Positions 18,512 to 19,903 of a stretch of DNA of 64,000 nucleotides are shown in pieces. Below the pieces are notes generated by a model. The model was not told where the DNA came from. It ran no database searches and was given only the letters and a program-made list of their open reading frames with translations. A program made the position numbers and the translations under genes. The stretch comes from Gammaproteobacteria bacterium (GTDB taxonomy: Bacteria; Pseudomonadota; Gammaproteobacteria; JABCZS01), in the NCBI GenBank assembly GCA_013289085.1, contig JABDAR010000005.1, forward strand, positions 8,947 to 72,946, written 5' to 3'. Numbering within the stretch: the stretch's first letter is position 1; each line of letters starts with the position of its first letter.

Positions 18512-18534
18512 ATGCCGCGAACGAGTCGCGGCAT
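18512..18534 (-). terminator. GC-rich hairpin terminator ending the radical-SAM cassette
   Basis: ATGCCGCGA-ACGAG-TCGCGGCAT is a perfect 9-bp stem. On the minus strand it is followed by AATAATTTTAAT. Confidence 0.6.
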
Positions 18535-18551
18535 ATAAGGGAGAAACGCGG

Positions 18552-18668
18552 TTAGTTCAGCTTTTGTTCTTGTTTTTGCTCTTTCTCTTTCTCATCTGTC
18601 GCAGGGCAAGCCAGTGTTACAGCTGAAAACCCAAATAATAATGCAGTAATCGCGAGAAAATATTTCAT
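18552..18668 (-). CDS. 38-aa signal-peptide/lipoprotein-like small ORF coupled to the radical SAM gene
   Basis: Hand-translated: MKYFLAITALLFGFSAVTLACPATDEKEKEQKQEQKLN. Its ATG overlaps the TGA of the upstream gene (ATGA), and an AAAGGAG RBS lies 8 nt upstream. Below the ORF-track cutoff. Confidence 0.5.
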   Translation of the reverse strand: MKYFLAITALLFGFSAVTLACPATDEKEKEQKQEQKLN

Positions 18669-19786
18669 GATAATGCTCCTTTGTGGTTTAGATTTTGCTT
18701 TAAATAATCGGCAATCTTTTCATAATACTCTTTAAGTCCGCTGCAGTAAATCGAAGGGTTATCAAAATGATTATCTTGATGATAGCGATTGACCAGTGAG
18801 CCACCATTACAAACAGGTTGCCATTCACAAACTGTACAAACATGTGGCAGTGATATACTGGCATTTTTTAATTGGGTAAATATAGGTTGTTGTAAATAAT
18901 CTGCCAATGAAGTGTTAAATACAGTGGCATCGGAATAATTAATACTAGGATCGGTCGCCCGCAATTCATCGGTGGGTGATAAATCGCCTGCAGATGAAAT
19001 GGAGATTAAAGGTAATTCATCAAGTTGCGAGCGGCCTTCACCATAAATATGCGAAGTGCCCCCTAAAAAAACTTCTAAAGTAGAATTAAAACATCGAATA
19101 TGAATATCTGGGTTATCATCCTTCACCCATTCATCAAATATAACCGATAAAAAATCTGTATAAGCGGATACAGAATGTGGCAAAGTATGATTGTGATTGT
19201 AAAGTGGTAATAAAAAATCAATATGCGTTGCTTTTAGATCATCGACAAAATGACGATAAATTGTTTTAGCACAATTGTCAGGATTGATGACGCATAATAA
19301 ACCAAAATTTAAAGATTGTGCATATGTACTATTGCGTAACAGCGCAATTTTTTTTGCAACGCGATCGTAACTGCCGCGACCCTTATGATCAACGCGTGCT
19401 TTGTCATGATCTTCTTTGGTGCCATCTATGCTGATACCGAGAGAAACATCATATTTATTCAATAATGCTAACCATTCTTCATTCAAAAGCATGGCATTGG
19501 TTTGCATGGTGTATTTTACTTTTGCAATCGATTGCAGGGTGTGATTAAAAATTTCACAGCTTTCTGCAAAATCATGTTTTTTTTGCATTAAAGGCTCGCC
19601 GCCATGAAAACCAATGACCACTTCATTAATTCCAAGTCGCTCGCAACCTGCTTTTAGAAATTCACTGACAGCAATAATAGTGTCTTTAGAAATGATAGGA
19701 GGACGTTTTTTATAAGTCTCGTCCCCCATATTAAACATATAACAGTAACTACAATTGATATTACATCTCTCAACTGTTTTAAGCAC
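18665..19786 (-). CDS. radical SAM enzyme with SPASM/twitch-like C-terminal Cys cluster (peptide-maturase-like)
   Basis: GTG start. CNINCSYCY (CxxxCxxC), FHGGEPLM, and the C-terminal CTVCEWQPVC...YC. The N-terminal pattern CYMF..D..YKKRPP recalls anSME/FxsB-type maturases. Confidence 0.75.
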   Translation of the reverse strand: MLKTVERCNINCSYCYMFNMGDETYKKRPPIISKDTIIAVSEFLKAGCERLGINEVVIGFHGGEPLMQKKHDFAESCEIFNHTLQSIAKVKYTMQTNAMLLNEEWLALLNKYDVSLGISIDGTKEDHDKARVDHKGRGSYDRVAKKIALLRNSTYAQSLNFGLLCVINPDNCAKTIYRHFVDDLKATHIDFLLPLYNHNHTLPHSVSAYTDFLSVIFDEWVKDDNPDIHIRCFNSTLEVFLGGTSHIYGEGRSQLDELPLISISSAGDLSPTDELRATDPSINYSDATVFNTSLADYLQQPIFTQLKNASISLPHVCTVCEWQPVCNGGSLVNRYHQDNHFDNPSIYCSGLKEYYEKIADYLKQNLNHKGALS

Positions 19787-19807
19787 TACACCTAAAGACT
19801 GATACAG

Positions 19808-19903
19808 TTATTTTGCTCCGAAGAAACTACGATGCTTGCTCGTAACTGCAGTATTGTCATTTTTTTTAGTATTTTCAATGATTTTTTCTAGAATTTTGCT
19901 CAT
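19808..19903 (-). CDS. 31-aa candidate RiPP precursor peptide
   Basis: Hand-translated: MSKILEKIIENTKKNDNTAVTSKHRSFFGAK. GAGG lies 7 nt upstream of the ATG, and the ORF ends 21 nt before the radical SAM start. Below the ORF-track cutoff. Confidence 0.45.
   Translation of the reverse strand: MSKILEKIIENTKKNDNTAVTSKHRSFFGAK

Follow-up and report, generated by a model that had tools for sequence, protein, structure and literature searches.

Can a peptide gene of only 31 codons and the radical S-adenosylmethionine (SAM) gene beside it make up a peptide-modifying pathway? The question is raised by a locus within a 64-kb stretch of the genome of an uncultured gammaproteobacterium (the window, in which all element coordinates are given). 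Here, on the minus strand and between bcp (which ends at 19967) and a PF01637 ATPase gene (ATG at 18379), an initial annotation had recognized four tightly packed elements—a 31-amino acid (aa) open reading frame (ORF), a radical SAM enzyme, a 38-aa ORF, and a terminator—and read them as one cassette for a peptide that is synthesized ribosomally and modified post-translationally (RiPP). All four elements are present. We find that the 31-aa ORF and the adjacent radical SAM gene probably form a reduced, two-gene RiPP cassette of the triceptide type. This half of the earlier proposal is upheld by a match to a precursor profile and by homologous loci, whereas the second peptide drops out because it belongs to a separate conserved unit.

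Class and Integrity of the Radical SAM Enzyme

What kind of enzyme does the locus encode? The coding region (18665..19807, minus strand; its GTG-initiated ORF of 373 aa covers 18665..19786) has its GTG 21 nucleotides (nt) past the TAA of the peptide ORF and contains the motifs CNINCSYCY and CTVCEWQPVC...C, all as described earlier. A Pfam scan reported Radical_SAM and Fer4_12, the former (PF04055) at 57.3 bits against a cut-off of 29.5 and with the cluster motif C8-x3-C12-x2-C15. CxxxCxxC is found in 32 of 33 aligned family sequences, the sole exception lacking that region. The initial annotation had likened the enzyme to peptide maturases and recommended searches with hidden Markov models (HMMs) as a check. 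These bear the kinship out: the cyclophane-maturase models XyeB (TIGR04496; 286 bits, cut-off 450), YhhB (NF041707; 273 bits, cut-off 445), and FxsB (TIGR04269; 248 bits, cut-off 370) all outscore the sulfatase-maturase model anSME (TIGR03942; 186.5 bits, cut-off 349.45). Since every one of these NCBIfam scores falls below its cut-off, the enzyme is best described as a relative of the cyclophane-forming maturases that belongs to no named subfamily.

Structure comparisons point the same way. In a sequence search of the PDB, ChlB came first (E = 1.3e-40), ahead of anSME (2e-24). An AlphaFold2 model of the enzyme (predicted local distance difference test score, pLDDT, 90.3) was matched by Foldseek to ChlB 9gm3 with a template-modeling (TM) score of 0.91 and a root-mean-square deviation of 1.9 Å over 370 columns, compared with a TM score of 0.83 for anSME; the predicted fold spans the whole ChlB structure. 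By computed sequence and fold similarity, we assign the predicted enzyme to the class of three-residue cyclophane-forming radical SAM maturases (triceptide synthases) and not to the sulfatase maturases.

The enzyme also looks intact. Of the 64 columns conserved to 90% or more among 32 homologues, it keeps the consensus residue in all 64, and it matches the FxsB, YhhB, and anSME domain models to their ends. Four cysteines (C317, C320, C326, and C348) show no variation across 33 sequences and line up with the C-x2-C-x5-C...C of ChlB. Where the fourth SPASM Cys would be, the enzyme does have the Ser singled out by the initial annotation, but this is nothing special: Cys occupies this position in none of the 33 family members, ChlB likewise has Ser, and the fourth Cys of Cx2Cx5Cx3C is thus absent family-wide. 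The Pfam SPASM domain (PF13186) was not reported for the enzyme at E ≤ 0.1. Two further cysteines, kept by ~75% of homologues, are replaced in the window enzyme (S214 and E321), and ChlB lacks them as well.

Homologous Loci and Larger Clusters

Which organisms carry this enzyme family, and what accompanies it? In a scan covering one genome for each species, the family turned up mainly in lineages that are intracellular or associated with amoebae (Coxiellaceae, Legionellales, Berkiella, Rickettsiaceae, Wolbachia, Parachlamydiales, Rhabdochlamydia, and Amoebophilaceae) and also in Oxalobacteraceae and Azospirillaceae, with the Xenorhabdus xye loci recovered at ~35% identity. The neighbourhood comparison that had been suggested for such enzymes came out in favour of a peptide partner: about 31 of the 38 loci inspected have a same-strand ORF of 44–102 aa ending within ~250 nt of the enzyme gene. 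In Xenorhabdus this upstream ORF is XyeA (90 bits on TIGR04495), while some loci (L009, L020, and L047) show no obvious upstream precursor. Clade genomes often hold several enzyme copies (L002–L048), and precursor types vary, from ...YPKCFKNQFVKAGGGFKRAYDKKC in Rickettsiaceae to a His-rich HTNHIHNDSHTDHS in Berkiella. Tandem radical SAM paralogues with no peptide ORF between them occur at L002 (~2350..2720), L005 (~2520..2880), and L097 (1302..3670), from which it follows that the closest relatives in named genomes (52% and 47% identity) are the second enzymes of such pairs.

The closest enzyme relatives of all (55–63% identity) lie on six metagenome contigs (L082–L085, L096, and L098). Their precursors, of 78–95 aa, have two leader helices (LFxxFKxQM... 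and S-x-LLEALKKQV) and a core of the form H-[ST]-D-H-x-S-F-x-R-H-x-S, that is, four consecutive aromatic-X-X triplets (HSD-HxS-FxR-HxS). In these clusters the first radical SAM gene is followed by a ~420-aa gene whose start overlaps its stop and which belongs to the α-ketoglutarate (αKG)-HExxH peptide β-hydroxylase family (TIGR04267; 43.7 bits, cut-off 40). After it comes another paralogue of the radical SAM gene. Clusters of this type occupy 2479..6631 at L083, 2634..6610 at L085, and 254..4167 at L096, and a glycosyltransferase family 9 gene often follows. Only six precursors related to these were found among 5.8 billion proteins, the sole source label on any of them being "hypothetical protein." A metagenome scan with a single protein yielded 10 loci and little that was new. 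By homology, the window locus is a putative reduced version of these larger precursor/radical SAM/HExxH/radical SAM clusters, a relationship that the initial annotation missed.

The 31-aa ORF as a Precursor Peptide

Is the 31-aa ORF (MSKILEKIIENTKKNDNTAVTSKHRSFFGAK; 19808..19903, minus strand), a putative minimal triceptide precursor by position, recognizable as such by sequence? The presence of a 31-aa ORF is by itself no more than chance would provide, as short ORFs are common (709 of 20–60 aa in the window); its profile match, on the other hand, lies beyond chance. An HMM built from seven precursors of the closest loci, none of them from the window, ranked this ORF first among 838 window ORFs of at least 20 aa (11.2 bits, E = 0.016; runner-up, 4.1 bits) and first among 2,458 stop-to-stop segments, with no other segment in the 64 kb matching the profile. 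None of 5,000 shuffles of the peptide reached 11.2 bits, the best attaining 9.5. HMMER and MAFFT give one and the same alignment, in which SKILEKIIENTKKND falls on the second leader helix and linker and TSKHRSF on HSDHxSF; L5, H24, and F27 are invariant in the MAFFT alignment of precursors. Aligned by eye, KHRSFFG can instead be paired with RHRSYAG from L082, which is the closest locus; common to both alignments is an H-x-S followed by an aromatic residue. The putative precursor would comprise a short leader helix, SKILEKIIEN, with its core centred on H23-R24-S25-F26. On this computed homology, it is very probably the precursor of the adjacent enzyme.

The initial annotation had pointed to two aromatic-x-x triplets, HRS and FFG. 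The first stands, aligned as H-R-S-F with the conserved H-x-S-F of the closest precursors; the second does not, because Gly has no Cβ and FFG therefore cannot be a triceptide motif of known type. A cyclophane at an H-x-S motif has been shown experimentally for the HAS motif of MicA (His5-Ser7; PMC12912966), and cross-links from His-C2 to Cβ are made by HtkB, HaaB, and YhhB (PMC11499958). The XyeA model (TIGR04495), on which the Xenorhabdus control was recovered, gave no match to the 31-aa ORF at E ≤ 1, and NCBIfam and Pfam returned nothing for this ORF, for the 38-aa ORF, or for the related precursors. Both small ORFs had been taken to be unannotated. This is right for the 31-aa ORF, which was not found in the public protein collection. 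It is not right for the 38-aa ORF, which is already a called gene in the Logan assembly of the contig and whose sequence occurs in NCBI, JGI, and Logan records.

Upstream of the peptide ATG, a GAGG Shine–Dalgarno-like element (19912..19915, minus strand) was read from the sequence at a spacing of 8 nt, not 7 as given earlier. A promoter-like site (TTGTAA, 17 nt, TAAAAT; 19944..19972, minus strand; 9 of 12 matches in a consensus scan) overlaps the end of bcp and is weak evidence, because such sites are no more numerous in the region than expected from shuffled sequence. We also considered whether the in-frame sequence preceding the ATG (GIIFASKISKRFNFNNNEVII) might be a remnant of the first leader helix and rejected this: it adds only 0.9 bits to the profile score and by itself scores −1.3 bits.

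Start of the Enzyme Gene

Where does the enzyme begin? The peptide and enzyme ORFs share one frame and are separated by a single TAA and seven codons. These codons (LYQSLGV) match the conserved N-termini of homologues, nearly all of which start 8–15 codons before VLKTVERCN. The enzyme may start either at the GTG at 19786 (373 aa) or at a CTG at 19807, directly after the peptide TAA and with GGAG 8 nt upstream, which would give a product of 380 aa (MYQSLGVVLKTVERCN...) beginning MYQSLGVVLKT..., equal in length to the MKKTLGIVLKT of homologue P0004; we infer no more than that both starts are possible. Tight precursor–enzyme spacing and non-ATG enzyme starts are also seen in relatives. Among the closest homologues, L083, L085, and L096 start with TTG or GTG, and at L003 a clear 85-aa precursor ends in a TAA that is in frame with the enzyme ATG and 9 nt before it. 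The TAA in the window is not an assembly slip, since an independent assembly is 100% identical over 9 kb, this codon included.

The public record of the enzyme (P0001, 357 aa) begins at Met17 and must be wrong, because that residue lies past the CxxxCxxC motif; because this record starts at Met17, an exact look-up of the 373-aa product found no match. The L096 homologue is mis-started in a like manner (371 aa, MDDKTF...), and both errors are explained by true starts at non-ATG codons.

The Small ORF and Hairpin Downstream

Do the 38-aa ORF and the hairpin belong to the cassette, as had been proposed? The ORF (MKYFLAITALLFGFSAVTLACPATDEKEKEQKQEQKLN; 18552..18668, minus strand) combines a signal peptide with an invariant Ala-Cys-Pro and a tail of charged residues. 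As the initial annotation had observed, its ATG overlaps the enzyme TGA (ATGA), and its ribosome-binding site, AAAGGAG (18676..18682, minus strand), lies inside the 3′ end of the enzyme gene, where it also encodes part of the enzyme's final residues (KGALS). Searched in full with phmmer, 1.84 billion representatives yielded three relatives (97, 59, and 61% identity), all of the form MKYFLAI..L.FGFSAV.LACP..D with a Lys/Glu-rich tail. In a close relative (L103, whose shared block is 92% identical in nucleotide sequence), a PALP enzyme and a transporter of the major facilitator superfamily (MFS) precede the small ORF and the same ATPase gene, the MFS stop overlapping the small-ORF ATG just as the enzyme stop does in the window. 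In a more distant one (L099), the small ORF stands behind an HMGL-like gene and, just as in the window, has pyrB and hemW close by. By blastn, the window and L103 are homologous from 18682, at the AAAGGAG 14 nt before the ATG, and on across the small ORF, hairpin, and ATPase gene; the AAAGGAG and the hairpin stem are conserved in L103, L104, and L099. Because the same block sits behind MFS or HMGL-like genes in relatives, ribosome-binding site, small ORF, and terminator make up a self-contained, lineage-conserved unit. The 38-aa ORF is thus set apart as a separate conserved gene, for a predicted small secreted protein or lipoprotein, and is not a second RiPP peptide.

The evolution of the small ORF fits a protein-coding gene. 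At the Ala-Cys-Pro site, window and L099 differ by only three synonymous changes (GCT TGC CCT versus GCG TGT CCA), a coding-type pattern. Leading up to the Cys, three lineages read VTLA-C, VSMA-C, and AVLA-C, so that the Cys is invariant while positions −3/−2 are noncanonical for the lipobox [LVI][ASTVI][GAS]C; cleavage by signal peptidase I after an A-x-A-like site fits the sequence equally well. The mature part of the product has no aromatic residue. The idea that the ORF is a cut-short N-terminus of the HExxH gene, which relatives carry at this position, was rejected, as there is no similarity and the ORF is conserved elsewhere alone.

The terminator-like hairpin found by a terminator scan (18501..18535, minus strand) reads TATGCCGCGA-CTCGT-TCGCGGCATA followed by ATAATTTTAA. 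Its GC-rich stem has 10 bp (18535..18511), and its T-rich tail ATAATTTTAA is weak and interrupted by A. The hairpin is predicted to end the small-ORF unit and, in this genome, the peptide–enzyme transcript as well.

The cargo upstream of the small-ORF ribosome-binding site differs between genomes: peptide and radical SAM genes in the window, PALP and MFS genes in L103 and L104, and an HMGL-like gene in L099 (regions compared: window 16717..18682, minus strand; L103 2437..4390; L099 1208..1411). The last five enzyme codons and the stop fall inside the shared block and therefore mark a recombination junction. Judging from these exchanges, the site looks like a recombination hot spot.

Relation to Known Systems

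How does the pair compare with characterized systems? The three-residue cyclophane-forming enzyme systems XyeA/XyeB (from Xenorhabdus), YhhA/YhhB, HtkA/HtkB, and HaaA/HaaB resemble it in having a short precursor gene directly upstream of a radical SAM enzyme of ~375–390 aa without a separate N-terminal recognition domain, and XyeB and YhhB are the best, if sub-cut-off, NCBIfam models for the window enzyme. His as the aromatic residue of the motif is shared with YhhB (HNR), HtkB (HTK), and HaaB (HAA) (PMC11499958). In contrast to these systems, the window peptide has only one clear motif (HRS), is shorter than any precursor compared, and has no peptidase or transporter gene nearby; unlike XyeA, it matches no XyeA model and lacks a Gly-Gly leader end. 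ChlA/ChlB (structures 9GM3 and 9GMC) is the best match among solved structures, the TM score of 0.91 applying to the full length. ChlB and the window enzyme have in common the pattern C-x2-C-x5-C-x-G-G-S...R-Y...Y-C, with Ser at the "fourth Cys." However, their identity is only 27–28%, and ChlB acts on Tyr motifs (native YDR; PMC11499958). Minviopeptin (MicA/MicB) offers the same motif type, its HAS cyclophane corresponding in motif to the window HRS; MicA, however, has three motifs, and its cluster includes the tailoring enzymes MicC and MicD (PMC12912966).

The six closest metagenomic clusters resemble the Fxs system (FxsA/FxsB/HExxH FxsC) and have the leader helix and H-x-S-F in common with the window peptide. 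The αKG-HExxH gene that adjoins the Fxs-type genes, and that is present in these clusters, is not in the window, which also lacks their second radical SAM gene, first leader helix, most of the core, and the follower. The sulfatase maturase anSME (4K37) shares the same overall radical SAM plus SPASM-like fold but differs in its lower sequence and fold scores relative to the cyclophane synthases, in a score short of its model's cut-off, and in the lack of a sulfatase partner here.

A Proposed Pathway and Its Alternatives

If the cassette is active, how would it work? We infer expression, chemistry, and product fate as follows. One transcript would carry the peptide and enzyme genes and the small ORF downstream of them, ending at the hairpin (18535..18511). 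The peptide would be translated from its GAGG/ATG, and the enzyme, by coupling, from the CTG right after the peptide TAA or the GTG 21 nt on. The enzyme would bind the short leader helix and cleave SAM reductively at the [4Fe-4S] cluster held by CxxxCxxC. A hydrogen would then be taken from the Cβ of Ser25, and that carbon would be joined to the imidazole of His23, probably at C2, so that H-R-S would form a three-residue cyclophane and the mass would shift by −2 Da, while an auxiliary cluster held by the C-terminal Cys set (C317, C320, C326, and C348) would accept the electron. In evolutionary terms, the cassette would be a cut-down derivative of clusters with a 78–95 aa precursor, two radical SAM enzymes, and an αKG-HExxH hydroxylase, and it would merely abut the unrelated conserved unit of 38-aa ORF, ribosome-binding site, and terminator. 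That such a minimal triceptide system is functional—a 31-residue precursor with a ~20-residue leader and a single His-Arg-Ser imidazole cyclophane, operating without a dedicated protease, exporter, hydroxylase, or second maturase—is a tentative proposal, to which we give less than even weight.

Several observations weigh against the reduced cassette. The HExxH hydroxylase (sought by tblastn) and a second radical SAM gene are absent from the whole 64 kb, and the lack of a dedicated protease or exporter nearby counts in the same direction. The peptide, at 31 aa, is shorter than every relative (51–102 aa in homologous precursors); the first leader helix, the follower, and two or three of the four core triplets are missing from it; F-F-G or F-G-A takes the place of F-x-R/K as its second triplet; its profile match is modest; and no orthologous copy of it was found. 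The enzyme stays below every curated subfamily cut-off, has no ATG start, ends 10–25 residues before its close homologues, and takes its final five codons (KGALS, then the stop) from DNA common to a relative with a different upstream gene. Much of this is also what speaks for a recent, decaying remnant, a reading we consider rather unlikely though still the main rival: rearrangements at the variable spot upstream of the small ORF would have truncated a larger cluster and left a shortened, nonfunctional peptide ORF together with an enzyme left without a substrate or without proper expression. The long precursor and the two partner enzymes missing here are found in every one of the closest clusters, most of the leader and core is gone from the peptide, the enzyme has neither ATG nor C-terminal tail and stops in the L103-shared block where the MFS gene sits instead, and the closest relative has no such cassette at this locus. 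Set against decay are an uninterrupted 373-codon ORF in a genome of 36% GC, the full set of highly conserved residues and the complete ChlB-like fold described above, a peptide that retains its Shine–Dalgarno element, ATG, and H-x-S-F motif, and the fact that TTG and GTG starts are normal in the clade.

Less probable again, and in our view quite doubtful, is a chance 31-aa ORF next to an orphan maturase whose substrate is encoded elsewhere or does not exist. The abundance of short ORFs in the window, the homologous loci without an obvious upstream precursor, and a profile score of only 11.2 bits would all be compatible with this. Yet the ORF is the single best match in the window, is placed exactly as the precursors of relatives are, outscores all composition-matched shuffles, and is preceded by an SD-like GAGG (SD, Shine–Dalgarno), and no other segment of the 64 kb matches the profile. 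The in-frame TAA and the conserved codons 5′ of the GTG raised a further candidate, namely that the 31-aa ORF is the enzyme's own N-terminus, cut off by a nonsense codon through pseudogenization, sequencing error, or programmed read-through; a few homologues do have N-terminal extensions of 20–35 aa. We rejected it as highly improbable because the alignments to XyeB, FxsB, and ChlB begin at residues 1–2 of the 373-aa ORF, TTG and GTG starts are used by homologues, L003 shows the same in-frame arrangement with a clear precursor, and the ORF matches the precursor profile and not enzyme sequence; the usual start of homologues shortly before VLKTVERCN and the TAA in the independent assembly stand against it too. 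We would give hardly any credence to an anSME or cofactor-type radical SAM enzyme without a peptide partner. The anSME model is matched over its full length and the fold is similar, but the score lies far below the cut-off and below those of three cyclophane-maturase models, ChlB is clearly better in sequence and fold, no sulfatase is found among the neighbours, and homologues are accompanied by precursor peptides.

Surroundings of the Locus

The Pfam-matched neighbours are mostly housekeeping genes: hemB, ispG, rdgB, hemW, pyrB, bcp, a Sua5/YrdC-family gene, SCO1, ctaB, ctaA, and SURF1. In agreement with the initial annotation, no protease, exporter, or sulfatase was recognized among the neighbours from ~11.0 to 24.5 kb, several ORFs in and beyond this span having no Pfam match. 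Among these are ORFs at 15044..15721 (225 aa), 23370..23825 (151 aa), and 24542..25345 (267 aa), and two large adjacent ORFs (613 and 1,052 aa; 25474..30496, plus strand) without a match at E ≤ 1e-5. The PF01637 (ATPase_2) gene (16940..18484, minus strand), which travels with the small ORF in L103, has a TrmB-like winged-helix match; its public start is the ATG at 18379 (479 aa), and the ORF extends to a TTG at 18484. Base composition across the cassette gave no signal of foreign DNA, the GC content being flat. IspG is 88–92% identical to proteins of metagenome-assembled genomes (MAGs) and ~70% identical to those of Legionellales MAGs and Fastidiosibacteraceae.

Significance

What does the locus add to what is known of triceptides? 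The class is large (~3,900 predicted pathways; PMC11499958) and already mapped, so one more precursor–enzyme pair is not surprising in itself. What sets this one apart is how short its precursor is and that the partner enzymes have been lost. The locus also illustrates how a false "cassette" look may arise: a small conserved gene with its own ribosome-binding site and terminator, abutted by variable cargo genes, mimics a RiPP operon.

No curated NCBIfam model covers this enzyme clade or its His-rich precursors (HSD-HxS-FxR-HxS), and the sources give them no descriptive name. If the 31-aa peptide does serve as a substrate, the leader requirement would be very short, a point of practical interest for the engineering of cyclophane synthases. 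The clade is enriched in bacteria with an intracellular life, obligate or facultative, where the functions of RiPPs are little known. Should the minimal system prove true, it would be the smallest natural precursor–maturase pair of its class and could open a way to learn what these peptides do in host-associated bacteria.

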